Counted from the first letter of the stretch, positions 12,091 to 63,508 are shown. The stretch: 64,000 nt of DNA from an uncultured virus (IMG/VR IMGVR_UViG_3300011223_000001) (IMGVR_UViG_3300011223_000001:186001-250000); one strand, 5' to 3'. Numbers and translations are program-made. The notes: generated by a model not told the origin, from the sequence alone.

Positions 12091-12672
12091 ATGAAATGGC
12101 TTTCTGCCGTAGTGCTAACTGTATTGGTTGCAATGGCTGGACCGGTCATGGCGTGCAGTCTGGTAGACTCAGGGCTACCCGACGATGTTCGTAAAGAGCT
12201 CGAACTCAAATGCCTGCAAGCCAGAAAAGCGGTCGCCGAAAAAACAGGTAACGCCGCCATGGATTCTCAGGTGTCTCAAATTTCCAATTATGCCGGCATT
12301 GCCACCGAAGTGGCCAAAGCAGTCGGCTTGGCGGCTAAGGAACTGGGTATCGCCGCCAATGAGTTCATCCTGACACCCGCCGGCATCATCACCATGCTGT
12401 TTGTGGTGTTCAAGGTATTTGGCAAGCTGTTCGCTATGATTGCTATAGCCATTGCAATCAATCTGATCATCTGGCGTCTGGTAAAAAGGATCTGGTACTA
12501 CGAATCCGGCGAAACCATGGAAGTGGTCGGTTGGTTTGGTTGGGGGAAGAAAACCATCCCTGTCATAAAACGCACCACCTACCAAGCGGCCACCGACGGA
12601 CAAGTGATTTTGACGCTTTTCCTTGGCATCATCGCTTTGGGTTCACTGATCATGATTCCTGTATCCAGCTAA
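12091..12672 (+). CDS. Membrane protein with N-terminal signal peptide
   Basis: AGGAG SD; MKWLSAVVLTVLVAMAGPVMA signal-like N-terminus; about three hydrophobic helices. Confidence 0.75.
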   Translation: MKWLSAVVLTVLVAMAGPVMACSLVDSGLPDDVRKELELKCLQARKAVAEKTGNAAMDSQVSQISNYAGIATEVAKAVGLAAKELGIAANEFILTPAGIITMLFVVFKVFGKLFAMIAIAIAINLIIWRLVKRIWYYESGETMEVVGWFGWGKKTIPVIKRTTYQAATDGQVILTLFLGIIALGSLIMIPVSS

Positions 12673-12696
12673 GTTCTACTTGGCTAGACTATGTAT

Positions 12697-12795
12697 GTAG
12701 AAAAGCCTGTACTGTGGTCCCCAACCTTTTAGGTCGTAGGCGAAAACGTGCACAATGCAGGCTATTCACATCCCGCTCTTCGGAGCGGGTCTTTA
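12697..12795 (+). ncRNA. Candidate small RNA (~95 nt)
   Basis: TAC-N14-TATG promoter motif; closing stem AGCCTGTA/TGCAGGCT (12704-12711/12756-12763); UUCG terminator 12772-12789; no credible ORF inside. Confidence 0.5.
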
Positions 12796-12829
12796 TGCTG
12801 TCTCACACTATCCCTTTAAGGAATATCTC

Positions 12830-13474
12830 ATGTCTTCGATCACTGTAACTAATCTGCGTCCTGACCTGTTCTTAATGCCCGGCACTAAAGCCGATGGCTC
12901 GGACAGTAAGGTACAACCGCGCCGGCGCATCTATGACGCTGAAACCGTACGACTGGCGATCATTGCCGCGATGCAACCAAACGGCATGTTCTCGGCCTAC
13001 CATGTGCGCGGTTATGCCACCGAATGGACGGTGGGTTGGATGAGTCGTGTATCGGCTAAAGAGAGCAGCAAGGTTCATGAGGTGTGGATCAACGCGGTAG
13101 AAGTCGTTACCAACACCAACGTGGCTGGCCCCTATGTACGGGTAGCTGCACGCACCACCAAGACCACCGCAGACCAAGTCTTCTTGGAACGCGCTGCGGC
13201 TAATCCAACCTCCCCCTTTATCCTTGCCACCGGCGATGGGTGGGTGGCGATACCGCCGTTGGACAGCGATGCTCCGTTCGAGCCTCGGATGCGCCCTATC
13301 CAGCGCACCCTGTACGCAGACACCATCGAAGTGACGGTGCCGTTCCCAGGGCATGAAGGTCAGGAACTCACCGAAGAAAACTCGTTCAAACTGCTGGTGC
13401 CCGCGCAGGGCGATGCACGCTTTGCTGAAGTCATTGACATCGCCGAGCTCAAGCGCCGCGGCGACCTACTGTAA
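12830..13474 (+). CDS. Hypothetical protein
   Basis: TAAGGA SD; 214 aa. Confidence 0.75.
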   Translation: MSSITVTNLRPDLFLMPGTKADGSDSKVQPRRRIYDAETVRLAIIAAMQPNGMFSAYHVRGYATEWTVGWMSRVSAKESSKVHEVWINAVEVVTNTNVAGPYVRVAARTTKTTADQVFLERAAANPTSPFILATGDGWVAIPPLDSDAPFEPRMRPIQRTLYADTIEVTVPFPGHEGQELTEENSFKLLVPAQGDARFAEVIDIAELKRRGDLL

Positions 13475-13482
13475 GGATACTC

Positions 13483-13893
13483 ATGGAAATCCCATTCCTG
13501 AAATATTTCGACAATCCGGCTTACTACAAGAAGCCACTGCCAGTCGAACTGGCCGCGTCTCGCCAGTGGCAGTTGGTATACGGTGAATTCCGTGCACCGA
13601 AATACATGGCCGTGATGCGTCACTACATGGCGAACTTCGACTGGGCTAACGTCAAGGAATCGGACGTTGCGCTGGCGATTAAGCTACTGATGGTATGGAT
13701 GTCCATGTCATCTAACCGTCTGCGCGAATGGCCGACGATGCATGAAGCATTGAAGACGTTCTCCAACAGGCTGGTTAATGAATACCACGATCTCGTCTTC
13801 CGTTACATGCCCAATACGAAGATCTCGTGGATCGACGATGACATCGAGTGGTTCGTAAACATCGAAGAACCATATGAGGCTTTACAACGCTGA
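13483..13893 (+). CDS. Hypothetical protein
   Basis: TAAGGA SD; 136 aa. Confidence 0.75.
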   Translation: MEIPFLKYFDNPAYYKKPLPVELAASRQWQLVYGEFRAPKYMAVMRHYMANFDWANVKESDVALAIKLLMVWMSMSSNRLREWPTMHEALKTFSNRLVNEYHDLVFRYMPNTKISWIDDDIEWFVNIEEPYEALQR

Positions 13894-13900
13894 GGTAGTT

Positions 13901-14071
13901 ATGGTTCGTACGTTCGATCTGTCCAAGTTACGCCAACAACAAACCCCGGAGCAGCTTGCCGGCAACCGTGAACGTTCACTGCAATTCGTAGAACGGTTCC
14001 AAAAGGCGCAACGGGCGTTGGAAGAACGGTGTGCTGAGTTAGGCATCCCCGTTCCGGTTTTGGTCTGCTAA
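13901..14071 (+). CDS. Hypothetical protein
   Basis: GAGGT SD; 56 aa. Confidence 0.55.
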   Translation: MVRTFDLSKLRQQQTPEQLAGNRERSLQFVERFQKAQRALEERCAELGIPVPVLVC

Positions 14072-14097
14072 GTTTTACTGAGCAGGTCATGGTATAC

Positions 14098-14445
14098 GGG
14101 AAGAACTGCACCCCATCGTAGTTCAACCTGTGTCTTGATTGCCAAGTGTCCCTAACCTGGACGCATAATGCCACGCTTGGTAATCTCGGAGCCGTTGGGA
14201 CTTGTGACCAAGGGCATAAACCGTAGGGCGTCGAAACAGTTGGTCTGTCAACTGTCAGATACCCGGGAGGCGACGCGTCAAACCTGAAAAAGAGGATATT
14301 GCGGCTAGGACAGATACCTACACGCAACGCTGTCCTCGTGACGAGCCTGAAGCGCATGAAGGCAATCGGACCACTTGAGTTTGTCTTAGGTGGTTATCTA
14401 GCGGAAAGCATAGCCCGCCCTTCGGGGCGGGTTTATGCCTTGTTT
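14098..14445 (+). ncRNA. Candidate large structured ncRNA (~340 nt including terminator)
   Basis: TAC-N14-TATAC upstream; helices 14103-09/14118-24, 14137-49/14173-85, 14228-33/14271-76, 14236-42/14249-55, 14307-13/14330-36, 14369-79/14385-95; UUCG terminator 14409-14438. Confidence 0.7.
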
Positions 14446-14514
14446 TTGTATTTTCGAATATTGCAGTAAATAAATACTGCGGGTGTAATGGTATACAGAA
14501 ATACAACGATTTCA

Positions 14515-14610
14515 GTCCCTGTAGTTCAATGGTTAGAGCATGCACACGTCCTTAGGCTAGCTGGTCTTTCGTGTGTTGGTCGGTGGTTCAATTCCACCCA
14601 GGAGCGCCCA
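14515..14610 (+). ncRNA. tRNA-like RNA with expanded anticodon loop
   Basis: Canonical D arm (GTTCAATGGTTAGAGC), T arm (GGTGGTTCAATTCCACC), imperfect acceptor stem and 3' CCA; 7-bp anticodon stem closes a 21-nt loop. Confidence 0.75.
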
Positions 14611-14677
14611 ATGGAGGCAACATGCCAATCTACACTGAGGTAAGAGTTCGATTGTGACCTTAACAGGAGCAATCGAA

Positions 14678-14854
14678 ATGGCACGTTCAAGAAAAGAAGG
14701 TGGGACTCGTCGCGATGGTCGCGAGTACTGGTCCCGTCGCCCTAACTGCAATGGTGCGGTAGGTAAGTTCGCTAAGCGGATTATCCACGGTCAAGAGCGC
14801 TGTATCGCTCGCGACATCACCCGCCATGAAGTTAACGCTCATTTCTCGGAATGA
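14678..14854 (+). CDS. Small basic hypothetical protein
   Basis: AGGAG SD; MARSRKEGG..., 58 aa. Confidence 0.6.
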   Translation: MARSRKEGGTRRDGREYWSRRPNCNGAVGKFAKRIIHGQERCIARDITRHEVNAHFSE

Positions 14855-14903
14855 GCATAGCGCCGGGGTCACCCCCGGCTCTTATTCCGTCTGGAGTAAT
14901 ACC

Positions 14904-15479
14904 ATGAGCTTCATGACCCGTTTGCGTGAGACACAGGCCAACGAAGAACAACGTATGTTGGCTGAAGAACAAGCGAAGTTGTTCCAGGATTTCATCGCTG
15001 ACTACCCGGATGACCCCCTGTGGCCGATCGTGGCGGCTATGCAGGCAGAGCACGCCAAACCTGAATGGAATGGTCAGCACGGTGACGCCATCGCTCAAGT
15101 GGTGCAAAACCCCGGTAACCAAGGTACTGCCTTGGTATGGAACCGTTGTCTGGCAGATGGCCCGTATCCATTCCTGTCGGTGCAATCAGTAGCCCGTCCC
15201 GTGCCGGCACTGCACCAAATCGCACCGTCATCGGTGCTGGACGATATCCTGGCTGTGGTTCAGGATATCAACATCTATGACACCGGTAAGCTGTCGGCCA
15301 AACTGGTTGAGATGGCCTTCTCTGCCTTCAAGGAACTGCTGGTAACAGCTATCGATGCAGACCCTGAGGAGAACACTTACTTCGTCCAAGCCTACACCAA
15401 AGACCGTAAGTGGATACTCGACATTCAGCTGTACTACAATGTTGTTTACACCGGGCATCAACAGGTCATGCCGCAATGA
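14904..15479 (+). CDS. Hypothetical protein
   Basis: GGAG SD; 191 aa. Confidence 0.7.
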   Translation: MSFMTRLRETQANEEQRMLAEEQAKLFQDFIADYPDDPLWPIVAAMQAEHAKPEWNGQHGDAIAQVVQNPGNQGTALVWNRCLADGPYPFLSVQSVARPVPALHQIAPSSVLDDILAVVQDINIYDTGKLSAKLVEMAFSAFKELLVTAIDADPEENTYFVQAYTKDRKWILDIQLYYNVVYTGHQQVMPQ

Positions 15480-15745
15480 AAGCATTTTACGTCCAAGCGC
15501 TCGACAGTCTGATCACCAGCAGCATCGAGCTTTATAAGAAGAACGGCCAGACCATTTTTAACCGACTAATACAAGTGCCAGAAGGCGACCGTGTAACCTC
15601 AGACCTGATCGCCCGTGTCAAGCACTGGGGTGGTGTAATGGGGGTCGAGATCAACTATCGCGAGCGAACGCGTGCGTTTCATATGAACATCGATGTGCAC
15701 GCTGTTCGGCTTACTCTGGCTCAGGCACAAACCCTGACTGCATAA
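15476..15745 (+). CDS. Hypothetical protein
   Basis: ATGA overlap with upstream stop. Confidence 0.65.
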   Translation: MKAFYVQALDSLITSSIELYKKNGQTIFNRLIQVPEGDRVTSDLIARVKHWGGVMGVEINYRERTRAFHMNIDVHAVRLTLAQAQTLTA

Positions 15746-15756
15746 GGAAAGACACC

Positions 15757-16257
15757 ATGTCTGAATTGGCTACGATCCACGCATCGATGGATGCCGTGAT
15801 GCAAGCATTCCAGCACTCCAGTGAAAAGCATGCCCACATGGTCGAACACTGTGGGATGTCTACCTGGTTACATGACTACCGCACCATGGGTTTCCACACA
15901 CCTCGTCAGAATGGCGCAACTTCTTGGATGCTGAAGCGTCTGCTTACCGAACCGGATGCTTTGCTGGTATCTAGGTTCCGTGAACAACTGATCGTAAACT
16001 TCAACGCAGAAGGTGTATGTGATGTGATGGGTCATAAGCGGACTATCATATCCGTGGAAGACCAAGCAAGGATCATTGAACCCTACGACCTGTCTCAGTG
16101 GGTAAAATCGGGACAGGTCTTTGACAAACCACTTAAACTGATCCTGTTGGACAGTTCCTGCACGGTGTTCAACAACGTGCGTATCAACAGGTTTTATGAT
16201 TGGTTGGCGATGTGCCCGGGTGTCACAAAAGACACGCAGATCATCCGCATGAACTAA
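15757..16257 (+). CDS. Hypothetical protein with degenerate P-loop-like segment
   Basis: TAAGGA SD; FHTPRQNGATSW and LILLD segments. Confidence 0.7.
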   Translation: MSELATIHASMDAVMQAFQHSSEKHAHMVEHCGMSTWLHDYRTMGFHTPRQNGATSWMLKRLLTEPDALLVSRFREQLIVNFNAEGVCDVMGHKRTIISVEDQARIIEPYDLSQWVKSGQVFDKPLKLILLDSSCTVFNNVRINRFYDWLAMCPGVTKDTQIIRMN

Positions 16258-16345
16258 TCACCTAACCTCAGCACAATCATCATTCTGAAATCACACTACG
16301 TCAGAATCGCCATCGAAACGGTTGAAGGCTATCAACCACCCGGCG

Positions 16346-16419
16346 AGGCATGTAGCTTAGTTGGTAGAGCAAACGGCTTTTAACCGTTATTGCGCAGGTT
16401 TCGAAACCTGCCATGCCCG
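16346..16419 (+). tRNA. tRNA-Lys(UUU), atypical
   Basis: Cloverleaf with anticodon arm AACGG-CTTTTAA-CCGTT; A1:C72 mismatch, 8-nt T loop, no encoded CCA. Confidence 0.8.
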
Positions 16420-16440
16420 CTCTCTGACATGGTGAAACGA

Positions 16441-16899
16441 ATGAAGAATGAAGTTGCAGTCCTGACTCTCCCTGCGGTAAACCGCGTTATCCGTTCCATT
16501 GGTTTCGAGGAGGTAATACTCAGCGATCGATGGACGAATGGCGATGAACGTGAGGGGTTGGTGATTGTGCTGGAGTCCGGTTGGCGTGTGGTGTTGGTGG
16601 ATCGGTGTGGGCAGTGCTGCTGCGAACACCGGTACATGAGCACTGATGACGACCTGGATTCTCTGGTAGGCGAAACGCTGGTAGGTATCCGCCACGGTGG
16701 ATGCAATGAAGATGAGGAAGATGAATACGGCGGTGTTGTTGAGGTCGAATTCGCTCTGATTCAGACTGACCGCGATTCCGTGACGATCGGTACCTACAAC
16801 TCCCATAACGGCTACTACGGTGGCCTGGACTTGGCGTTGGTGGTGTACGATCCTGATGGGAACAAGGTAGTTGATCACGTATCGTTTACTGGAGAGTGA
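16441..16899 (+). CDS. Conserved phage hypothetical protein (QxCCE...HNGYYGG family)
   Basis: GQCCCEHRY..DDLDSLVG...HNGYYGG pattern; followed by a UUCG terminator near 16903-16930. Confidence 0.7.
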   Translation: MKNEVAVLTLPAVNRVIRSIGFEEVILSDRWTNGDEREGLVIVLESGWRVVLVDRCGQCCCEHRYMSTDDDLDSLVGETLVGIRHGGCNEDEEDEYGGVVEVEFALIQTDRDSVTIGTYNSHNGYYGGLDLALVVYDPDGNKVVDHVSFTGE

Positions 16900-62749: not shown

Positions 62750-63508
62750 GTGTTTAAACGTGTAGTGTTGGAGAAGCGACACAATCGCTTAGGTAAAGAA
62801 GAACAGATCCTAGCCAACGTGGCCAAGATCGCCAAGATCCCTGTGGTCACCACCTACGAGAAAACCGTAGCGCGTAACCATTTTATTTTTGAACCGACTG
62901 ACCTCGTGGCAGGTAGCGTGGGCTTCATGCACCACGCCATGCGGGCTTTTGGCATCACGATACACCACAACCACCCCTACCCCGACGTGTTGGCTGATAT
63001 CATGCACCGTAAGGTGTTGCCGATTTACACGATGTACGATTTGCGCAAACACTTCACCCAAAAGGGTAGCCCAGTGTTTGTCAAACCCCTACAGACCAAA
63101 AAGTTCACCGGCTTTGTGGCTGACCAGATTGGTGATCCGCGTTTTAATGGGGCAGGGAACCAGACGAGCATCATCTGCACAGAGGTGGTGGAGTTCGTTC
63201 ACGAGTGGCGGGTGTATGTCGCCAAAGGGCGCGCGGTCAGTACGCAAAGCGTAACGCTGTTACATAACCGACCATGGTTCCCGAACCCAATCGTTGTTAA
63301 CGAACTGGTGGATCGGTTGAGCAACGCATTCGAGGGCGCCCCATTGGGTTATGCGTTGGATCTTGGTGTTCTGTCCAATGGCAAGCTGGCATTGGTGGAA
63401 ATCAACGATGGCTATTCGATTGGTGCTTATGGCAAGATGCTACCCAGTGACTACTGGGCGGTTATCGCAAACCGCTGGGCCCAACTCGTACAAGGAGCTA
63501 CAAAATGA
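62750..63508 (+). CDS. ATP-grasp domain protein (DUF4343/R2K-like)
   Basis: YP..L...R, VFVKP..KKFTG, EWRVYV, YALDLG, LVEIND. Confidence 0.78.
   Translation: MFKRVVLEKRHNRLGKEEQILANVAKIAKIPVVTTYEKTVARNHFIFEPTDLVAGSVGFMHHAMRAFGITIHHNHPYPDVLADIMHRKVLPIYTMYDLRKHFTQKGSPVFVKPLQTKKFTGFVADQIGDPRFNGAGNQTSIICTEVVEFVHEWRVYVAKGRAVSTQSVTLLHNRPWFPNPIVVNELVDRLSNAFEGAPLGYALDLGVLSNGKLALVEINDGYSIGAYGKMLPSDYWAVIANRWAQLVQGATK

Follow-up and report, generated by a model that had tools for sequence, protein, structure and literature searches.

A predicted gene for a highly structured non-coding RNA of an undescribed family in Noxifer-type phiKZ-like jumbo phages

The window analysed here is a 64,000-nt stretch corresponding to bases 186,001–250,000 of a 268,693-bp IMG/VR virus record (G000), whose estimated completeness is 97%. 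By Pfam, the genome encodes phiKZ-type capsid, vertex, tail-tube and inner-body proteins, and one of its proteins, of 658 aa, shares 90% identity with a protein of Pseudomonas phage Noxifer and 62% with phiKZ gp182; we therefore assign the phage to the Noxifer-type phiKZ-like jumbo phages. The 5′ neighbour of the unit studied here is a 65-aa ORF (13874–14071) that is conserved in all relatives. It is followed by a conserved block, TACTG-N2-CAGGT-c-ATGGTATAC, which spans 14076–14097 and contains a promoter-like motif whose form may also be given as GTCATGATATA. About 310 nt with no conserved ORF separate this block from a terminator hairpin (Table 1). The locus thus has the generic marks of a stand-alone sRNA gene, namely a promoter-like motif (a predicted promoter), an intrinsic terminator and no conserved ORF. 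All of the sequence elements named in a preliminary description of the locus are present.

Table 1 Features of the RNA unit and sites of the promoter-like motif (positions are those of the window unless marked genome).
Feature	Position	Strand	Remarks
Promoter-like element: conserved TACTG-N2-CAGGT, then core GTCATGGTATA (14086–14096)	14076..14096	+	Kept in 3/3 homologues
RNA gene, promoter to terminator, ~345 nt	14098..14445	+	Prediction from sequence
H1, 5′ hairpin: base ACGGG/CCUGU, upper stem GAACUGC/GUAGUUC	14096..14131	+	Kept; upper stem differs in each homologue
H2, 13-bp stem 14137–49/14173–85 with conserved 23-nt loop 14150–72	14137..14185	+	4 pairs changed on both sides
Candidate pseudoknot, 5′ strands in H2 loop: GACGC 14160–64, GCC 14170–72	14160..14172	+	8 pairs, 3/3 sequences
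Extra hairpin, ~20-nt insertion	14191..14215	+	Window-specific; missing from both relatives
H4 (14226–32/14258–64) around H3 (14236–42/14249–55), invariant loop GUCUGU 14243–48	14226..14264	+	Core model
Candidate pseudoknot, 3′ strands: GGC 14269–71, GCGUC 14275–79	14269..14279	+	In near-invariant GGAGGCGnnGCGnCAA block
H5, three-tier arm GAGGAUA/UGUCCUC, UUGC/GCAA, UAGG/CCUA; invariant loop ACAGAUA 14310–16	14292..14337	+	Core model
H6, short stem, conserved loop AAGCG-A-G-A	14342..14368	+	
H8, 11-bp hairpin	14369..14395	+	Alignment columns 305–335; several pairs changed on both sides
Intrinsic terminator GCAUAGCCCGCCC-UUCG-GGGCGGGUUUAUGC, G+C-rich hairpin 14408–14438, U-rich tail	14408..14449	+	
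Motif site 1	genome 2507	−	Leader + tRNA-Tyr + tRNA-Asn unit
Motif site 2	14086..14096	+	RNA gene 14098–14445
Motif site 3, core GTAATGGTATA	14485..14495	+	Precedes tRNA-like gene 14515–14606
Motif site 4	genome 263,441	+	ORF-free unit, ~230 nt
Motif site 5	genome 267,921	+	ORF-free unit, ~115–150 nt

The pattern [GT]TnATr[GA]TATA occurs at just five sites in the 268,693-bp genome, all five directly before RNA units, and the same motif directly precedes tRNA or ORF-free RNA units at four of four sites in Noxifer and at two of two in a further relative, G003. The genome of another relative, G001, has no such site. This restriction bears out the earlier claim that the RNA has a promoter motif of its own, as a predicted promoter. 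After the RNA's terminator a second copy of the motif is present in both the window and G003; at 14485–14495 it is predicted to close the RNA unit off from the downstream gene. A different motif, TTCAC-N4-GTGATATAG-(G/A)TCT, has 13 genome sites, all on the − strand (for example, window 9790, 12018, 26720 and 32661), and probably marks a separate phage promoter class. Because that motif differs and is confined to the − strand, we regard the motif of the RNA gene as a class of its own. Early promoters of these phages have been reported to carry an AT-rich motif of ~10 nt centred near −10 (PMC7598289), and a report on 201phi2-1 describes a tRNA served by a middle promoter (PMC11512511).

The terminator claimed for the RNA is likewise present, and a simple scan listed overlapping variants of it. 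Its style, CATA-GCCCnCCC...GGGnGGGC-TT(T)ATG, recurs at 18 and 22 genome sites by two patterns; it is the phage's generic type and is not confined to RNA genes. It agrees with terminator motifs that have been reported across the genomes of 201phi2-1 and phiKZ (PMC11512511).

Other units carry the same promoter-like motif. One ORF-free unit of ~230 nt (genome 263,441–263,690, + strand; L007:1290–1539) has the motif, a C/A-rich 5′ half and a near-identical terminator; it is 76.6% identical in Noxifer and has a weak 61.8% match in G001. Another, of ~115–150 nt (genome 267,921–268,075, + strand; L193:7921–8075), has the promoter GTAATGATATA and is closed by an 11-bp stem, GCAGCUGUAGG/CCUACAGCUGC, with the same terminator style; its promoter and first bases are kept in Noxifer. 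Neither unit matches Rfam. On the − strand, from genome ~2,507 to 2,170, the motif is followed by a structured leader of ~110 nt, tRNA-Tyr, tRNA-Asn and a phage-type terminator, and tRNA units of Noxifer and G003 are likewise preceded by the first bases after this promoter (CGGAAGTAATTGCCG).

Homologues of the RNA are few. A blastn search of 50,697 phage records matched Noxifer alone, which is present twice (GenBank and RefSeq). The alignment extends from the 65-aa gene into the 405 nt, unannotated, that separate genes 206 and 207; the homologue lies at about MF063068 197,156–197,560. With a gp182-like protein as query, we obtained four IMG/VR jumbo-phage loci (L042–L045). The RNA is carried by Noxifer (L042) and by L044, from the 283,622-bp (~284-kb) IMG/VR record G003, and is missing from L043 (G001; 267,320 bp, 100% complete) and L045 (G002). 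In G001, a tRNA-Gln directly follows the shared 65-aa gene, giving a clean presence/absence of the RNA at the same place. The Noxifer and L044 homologues align with the window RNA at 65–77% identity. A metagenome contig, L022, derives from the same phage (99.0% identity over 1012 nt) and is identical in the RNA region; because all ten of its differences cluster within 14571–14626, it is uninformative on constraint acting on the RNA, and we set aside a selection test based on it.

A covariance model of the structural core (R1; 176 positions, 43 pairs) scores the three known copies at 167–177 bits. It found no further match at E ≤ 10 in all 14 pieces of G001, L045 and the phiKZ and FBKp24 loci, and none at E ≤ 1 in the whole G002, phiKZ or FBKp24 records. 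The pattern CCGGGAGGCGNCGCGTCAA occurs at four viral loci, one of them Noxifer; the other three (L002, L004 and L005) were rejected as homologues, since they lie inside long ORFs and their alignments stop at the pattern. Of 33 metagenome loci with this pattern, only L022 aligns beyond it, and the remainder were set aside. A second pattern, GGAGGCGNNGCGN{20,45}GACAGATAC, has seven viral loci, two of them true (Noxifer and G003), and at least 120 loci in genome_contigs, 80 of which were listed. None of those 80 outside the known homologues aligns past short stretches, and three weak nhmmer matches among them (E 0.0045 to 0.22) were rejected, the best being a terminator-like stretch of G003; a bacterial copy is conceivable among the loci beyond these 80. 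A search with a 136-aa neighbour protein as query returned one marginal locus only. These searches and the R1 results thus give three distinct sequences, and an accessory element of one clade. So far, the RNA family appears to be confined to Noxifer-type phiKZ-like phages of Pseudomonas.

The region is ORF-free, as had been proposed. Every frame of both strands contains at least two stops in each of the three homologues, and most pairwise indels are not multiples of three (11/13, 7/10 and 12/12 for the three homologue pairs). In the window, an ORF of 152 aa on the − strand (13899–14357) and ORFs of 39 and 56 aa on the + strand overlap the region; the 152-aa ORF matches neither Pfam nor PHROG and is not conserved. 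A Shine–Dalgarno-like GGAGG was rejected as a translation signal, as no start codon follows it and a TTG ORF at 14299 is not conserved. We also rejected a reading of the RNA as an Rsm/Csr sponge with GGA motifs, because of nine GGA sites in the window's RNA, GGAGG alone is kept in all three sequences.

Folding of 14072–14450 is better than expected by chance, on the + strand only. The + strand reaches −147.8 kcal/mol (z −4.43), with none of 100 shuffles as good, versus z −1.62 and 10 of 100 shuffles as good for the − strand. The L044 homologue behaves in the same way, with z −4.55 (0/100 shuffles) on the + strand and z −0.44 (28/100) on the − strand; the + strand of the Noxifer homologue has z −2.60, and 14100–14404 of the window alone has z −2.98. 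The strand asymmetry is consistent with an RNA encoded on the + strand, and the comparison with shuffled controls sustains the earlier view of the region as highly structured.

The fold is supported by covariation. RNAalifold on the three full-length sequences predicted 92 pairs, 18 of them changed on both sides. We then counted changes, on a model-guided alignment, in a nested core model built by hand from the three folds. In this model, 88.9% of cells are paired, versus 31–43% in slid controls, and 12 of 43 pairs are changed on both sides, a count that none of 500 shuffles reaches (mean, 6.3; slid controls, 0–3). There being only three distinct sequences, the covariation rests on few events, and the core structure was derived in part from the same three sequences that were counted; the result is support for the fold, not proof of it. 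The 13-bp stem singled out in the preliminary description (H2) is kept in both relatives (AAGUGU/ACGCUU, AGGUGU/ACGCCU and GAGUGU/ACGCUC), and its inner 6 bp covary across all three sequences. Two other proposals did not survive the comparison. An AGGACAG/CTGTCCT stem has 57% of cells paired, with five of its seven pairs broken in the relatives, and a GTAGG/CCTAC pseudoknot is no better than shuffles (342/500) and is not kept in the relatives. CCUAC is instead part of a local hairpin, within H5, with the covarying stem UAGG/CCUA, CAAG/CUUG and UAAG/CUUA.

Whole hairpins have been gained or lost as well, which is typical of functional RNAs. In addition to the extra hairpin of the window, one is common to Noxifer and L044 and one more is found in Noxifer only. 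Beside H8 there is one extra hairpin in L044 and two in Noxifer. Judged from the alignments, at least eight helices appear to be kept in the relatives through compensatory changes and whole-hairpin insertions.

Two tertiary contacts are candidates in the model. The first is a pseudoknot between the H2 loop and a downstream GGCGnnGCGUC segment (GACGC+GCC with GCGUC+GGC), whose eight pairs are 100% paired in the three sequences and include one A-U to G-C exchange; its rival is a local hairpin, GGCG/CGUC, which is helix 5 of the core model. The second would link the core's sole invariant unpaired runs of at least 4 nt, GUCUGU in the H3 loop and ACAGAUA in the H5 loop. Their 6-nt complementarity (GUCUGU/ACAGAU) is equalled in 34 of 2000 letter shuffles, its six pairs hold in all three sequences, and we treat it as a candidate 6-bp loop–loop contact.

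The RNA matches no described family that we searched for. We used the 4227 models of Rfam 15, taking as criterion a score at or above the gathering threshold of the family. At these thresholds, the whole window contains two tRNA matches only. At E ≤ 10, 13800–14800 yielded within the RNA only weak terminator matches (rnk_pseudo, at 25.6 bits versus a threshold of 55; MicC; NrrF), and at E ≤ 1 the homologue loci L042 and L044 yielded only tRNAs. No match was found among the Rfam 15 families to tmRNA, RNase P, 6S, SRP, group I/II introns, T-box, small ribozymes, GOLLD, ROOL, OLE, raiA or HEARO, so the covariance search agrees with the initial impression that no tmRNA, RNase P or group I/II core is recognisable. 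A T-box-like reading of UUAGGUGGU was rejected, there being no T-box model match at E ≤ 10. In the literature, we found no paper describing this RNA. The phage context, the conserved non-coding helices with covariation, the RNA-only motif, the lack of an Rfam match and the literature search together uphold its earlier designation as an undescribed phage ncRNA.

Part of the stretch occurs in public sequencing runs, with 19 listed entries from 11 studies. We compared four runs from four studies over 12500–16500; these data consist of contigs only, which do not reveal strand, ends or level. Two runs are on record as RNA, a metatranscriptome (X12; contig 14185–14404) and a soil metatranscriptome (X15; contig 14253–14403). 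In the other two, RNA is a guess: X6 (contig 14104–14404, depth 17.3) and X14, a cDNA library that is perhaps DNA (contig 14145–14362). None of the four contigs has a difference from the window. The most 5′ RNA-library contig begins 7 nt past the promoter-like motif, at 14104, and three contigs end at 14403/14404 without loose ends, where the DNA assemblies (the window and L022) continue. These ends hint, weakly, at an RNA whose end lies shortly upstream of the terminator hairpin; poor cDNA priming inside the G+C-rich hairpin may explain the stop at 14404 equally well. The four runs have no contigs on the flanking protein genes, which is not evidence; the runs were also chosen because they contain the stretch. 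Because DNA may occur in such libraries, the contigs are suggestive of expression of the RNA and no proof of transcription.

In all three genomes that carry the RNA, the distance to a tRNA or tRNA-like gene is between 70 nt and 2 kb. In the window, the order is RNA, tRNA-like gene, 58-aa basic protein, two ORFs and tRNA-Lys; in Noxifer, RNA, ORF 207, tRNA-Tyr/Asp/Asn, basic protein and tRNA-Lys; and in G003, RNA, tRNA-Asn, a further non-coding stretch, basic protein, RtcB ligase and tRNA-Lys. The gene 3′ of the RNA is therefore a different one in each genome, and the nearby tRNAs of the relatives are Tyr, Asp, Asn and Lys. The tRNA-like gene said to adjoin the RNA is indeed there, at 14515–14606, after the second motif copy ~40 bases past the terminator. 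Its acceptor, D and T arms are normal, but a 24-nt insert replaces the anticodon loop; the Rfam tRNA model scores it at 36.3 bits, and ARAGORN does not call it. Its 3′ half (14571–14601) contains five of the ten positions at which the phage and L022 differ. The G003 stretch between tRNA-Asn and the basic-protein gene (L044:17580–17965, ~390 nt) has no convincing ORF and occupies the position of the window's tRNA-like gene. Its end is tRNA-shaped: a 7-bp stem resembles an acceptor, and two hairpins resemble T arms.

We found no partner protein that could be tied to the RNA. The 58-aa arginine-rich basic protein (14678–14854, + strand; phrog_7399, no Pfam match) is 82–91% identical in Noxifer and G003, where its neighbours are at ~40–60%. 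It occurs in the three RNA-bearing genomes and not in G001 or G002, and it has a distant homologue in Klebsiella phage FBKp24, in which we found no such RNA. Of 338 ORFs called, 16 are present in G003 and Noxifer and missing from G001, and none of these 16 has an RNA-related family or is a recognisable RNA-binding protein. One of the 16 encodes an R2K-clade ATP-grasp enzyme (62750–63508, + strand; PF18299, 94 bits). Outside the window, a Pfam scan of 150 of the 191 ORFs of at least 90 aa (41 ORFs and 8 at piece boundaries were left unscanned) revealed phiKZ structural and replication proteins only. The whole 268.7-kb genome, in six frames, has no RVT_1 match for a reverse transcriptase (controls matched in 3 of 14 genomes) and no TROVE match for Ro60 (controls matched in 2 of 14 genomes). 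We accordingly rejected a retron or DRT-type template RNA, as the genome has no reverse transcriptase, and a Y RNA or YrlA, as it has no Ro60 (TROVE) protein and the RNA matches no Y-RNA model. Right after the small basic protein, G003 encodes a 419-aa RtcB RNA ligase (L044:18275–19534, 430 bits). RtcB was found in G003 only of four genomes and not in the window's phage, Noxifer or G001; its presence in one of three RNA-bearing genomes makes the link to RNA repair a loose one. A survey of jumbo phages links their tRNAs and RNA ligases to host defences that cleave tRNAs (PMC7824862).

We regard the locus as a real gene of an undescribed RNA family, whose product most likely acts in trans. On balance, we lean towards an independent gene whose product is a stable, highly structured non-coding RNA of Noxifer-type phiKZ-like phages. 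The RNA would be transcribed on the + strand from a promoter-like motif restricted to stable-RNA units (the tRNA-Tyr/Asn operon, the tRNA-like gene and two other ORF-free RNAs), would end at the phage's generic intrinsic terminator and would fold into at least eight helices. It would act in trans and not as a leader for one downstream gene, most likely as a protein-binding scaffold or decoy in a contest over tRNAs and translation during infection, a role that we infer indirectly from its place in a variable tRNA/RNA-repair island. Several observations weigh against this explanation: no protein partner, reverse transcriptase or Ro/TROVE included, is tied to the RNA; the 16 co-occurring ORFs hold no recognisable RNA-binding protein; the basic protein occurs in FBKp24 without the RNA, and RtcB in one of three RNA-bearing genomes; the covariation events are few, from three sequences; RNA-library contigs do not prove transcription; and the Noxifer protein gene that follows the terminator without a second motif would fit a leader.

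That last observation favours an alternative in which the RNA is a cis-acting leader or attenuator, with conditional read-through at its terminator controlling the genes downstream. ORF 207 of Noxifer comes immediately after the terminator, with no second promoter motif between, and short RNAs derived from 5′UTRs have been reported for phiKZ (17) and 201phi2-1 (8) (PMC10914365, PMC11512511). The terminator tail of the RNA (CTTATGCC) contains the annotated ATG of NOXIFER_207 (L001:3578–4345). Alignment with the G001 homologue of this protein begins no earlier than residue 19, which places the true start probably downstream of that ATG. Two features weaken the leader reading: a fresh promoter copy follows the terminator in the window and G003, and the downstream gene differs among the three genomes. 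Moreover, the G001 counterpart of ORF 207 sits at another place with no copy of the RNA, and ~300 nt with eight conserved helices go far beyond the needs of an attenuator; we consider this alternative unlikely, though it might hold for Noxifer. An RNA-only assembly, in which a compact counterpart of ROOL or GOLLD forms dimers or multimers through loop–loop contacts with no dedicated protein, draws on the GUCUGU/ACAGAUA complementarity (equalled in 34 of 2000 shuffles, 3/3 sequences) and on the precedent of ROOL and GOLLD, described as phage or prophage RNAs, often at tRNA islands, with kissing loops (PMC12286853). It seems to us quite unlikely: the invariant loops yield no covariation, the contact may equally be intramolecular, and the RNA matches neither the ROOL nor the GOLLD model and is about half their size or less.

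A ribozyme or RNA-processing RNA, for example one that cleaves itself or acts on phage tRNA precursors, would account for a complex conserved fold, and the stop of three RNA-type contigs at 14403/14404 hints weakly at a defined 3′ end. No Rfam ribozyme (RNase P, group I/II or small self-cleavers) is matched, however, and the cDNA priming discussed above would account for that stop equally well; nothing in the analysis favours such a role, which we judge very improbable. Extremely improbable, finally, is a DNA-level element (an origin, packaging or recombination site) or a set of unrecognised small protein genes, for which the three ORFs overlapping the region could be cited. The one-strand excess of folding is not expected from the symmetry of DNA, and G-U pairs are kept; the ORFs are not conserved, suffer frame-shifting indels and meet stops in all frames of the relatives, and the largest of them lacks a family match.

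A nucleus-forming phage here appears to reserve a separate, predicted promoter class for a few stable RNAs, which hints at a coordinated RNA programme beside tRNA and RNA-repair genes. By analogy with ROOL and GOLLD, the RNA might, though we find this doubtful, be a protein-independent RNA particle: the pseudoknot and a GUCUGU:ACAGAU lock, intra- or intermolecular, would hold together a product of the stable-RNA promoter class that shields or sequesters tRNA-pathway components under host tRNA attack. If that were true, the RNA would be one arm of a 'stable-RNA regulon' of nucleus-forming phages, consisting of three orphan RNAs and tRNA units. Large folded phage RNAs such as ROOL and GOLLD are among the least understood RNAs, and to our knowledge no standard laboratory host offers a workable genetic system for any of them. 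Here, the RNA family is small, Noxifer is a cultured phage of Pseudomonas fluorescens SBW25, a model organism that is harmless, and one close relative naturally lacks the RNA; a cultured carrier and a natural RNA-less relative make the role of the RNA directly testable.

Among known systems, the tRNA gene cluster of phage T4 encodes stable non-tRNA RNAs, 'species 1 and 2', whose function was never settled. The RNA described here is likewise a non-tRNA stable RNA among phage tRNA genes; the T4 species, in contrast, are much smaller, are co-transcribed with tRNAs and are cut from a precursor. ROOL and GOLLD RNAs measure roughly 580 to over 800 nt. As described for these phage or prophage RNAs, which often lie near tRNA islands and are held by kissing loops (PMC12286853), the RNA is phage-borne, sits at a tRNA island and has multiple helices, pseudoknot and loop–loop candidates and no known protein partner. 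Unlike them, it matches neither Rfam model even at E ≤ 10, is ~305–350 nt long (about half or less) and comes from a Pseudomonas jumbo phage. ROOL and GOLLD are its nearest analogues by behaviour; with a length above ~500 nt and the core helices of the family as criteria, membership fails on model match and size. Ro60/Y-RNA (YrlA) and RtcB RNA-repair modules are mentioned for jumbo phages in one survey (PMC7824862). The G003 island resembles them in having structured and tRNA-like RNAs near an RNA ligase gene; the genome of the window's phage differs in that it has no TROVE/Ro60 gene, the RNA has no Y-RNA model match, and RtcB is missing from the window's phage and from Noxifer.

By lineage, the nearest RNAs are the short RNAs of phiKZ and 201phi2-1, which appear to be non-homologous. 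These RNAs, promoter-proximal or intergenic, were reported from ONT-cappable-seq as products of premature termination in 5′UTRs, with 17 candidates in phiKZ and 8 in 201phi2-1, mostly below 250 nt and in 5′UTRs of protein genes; one candidate sits directly upstream of a tRNA (PMC10914365, PMC11512511). They share with the Noxifer-type RNA the phage group and the boundaries set by a phage promoter and a phage-type terminator, and a dedicated promoter class for tRNA genes, as here, is described for phiKZ and 201phi2-1 (PMC10914365, PMC11512511). The Noxifer-type RNA exceeds them in length. In the window and in G003, a second promoter copy closes it off, so there it would not be a 5′UTR; the Noxifer copy is followed by ORF 207 with no such motif between them. 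R1 has no match in the whole phiKZ record at E ≤ 1, indicating no homology to the described phiKZ RNAs, and the syntenic phiKZ region has no gap of a similar kind. As an element of a known kind, the RNA represents a new family.
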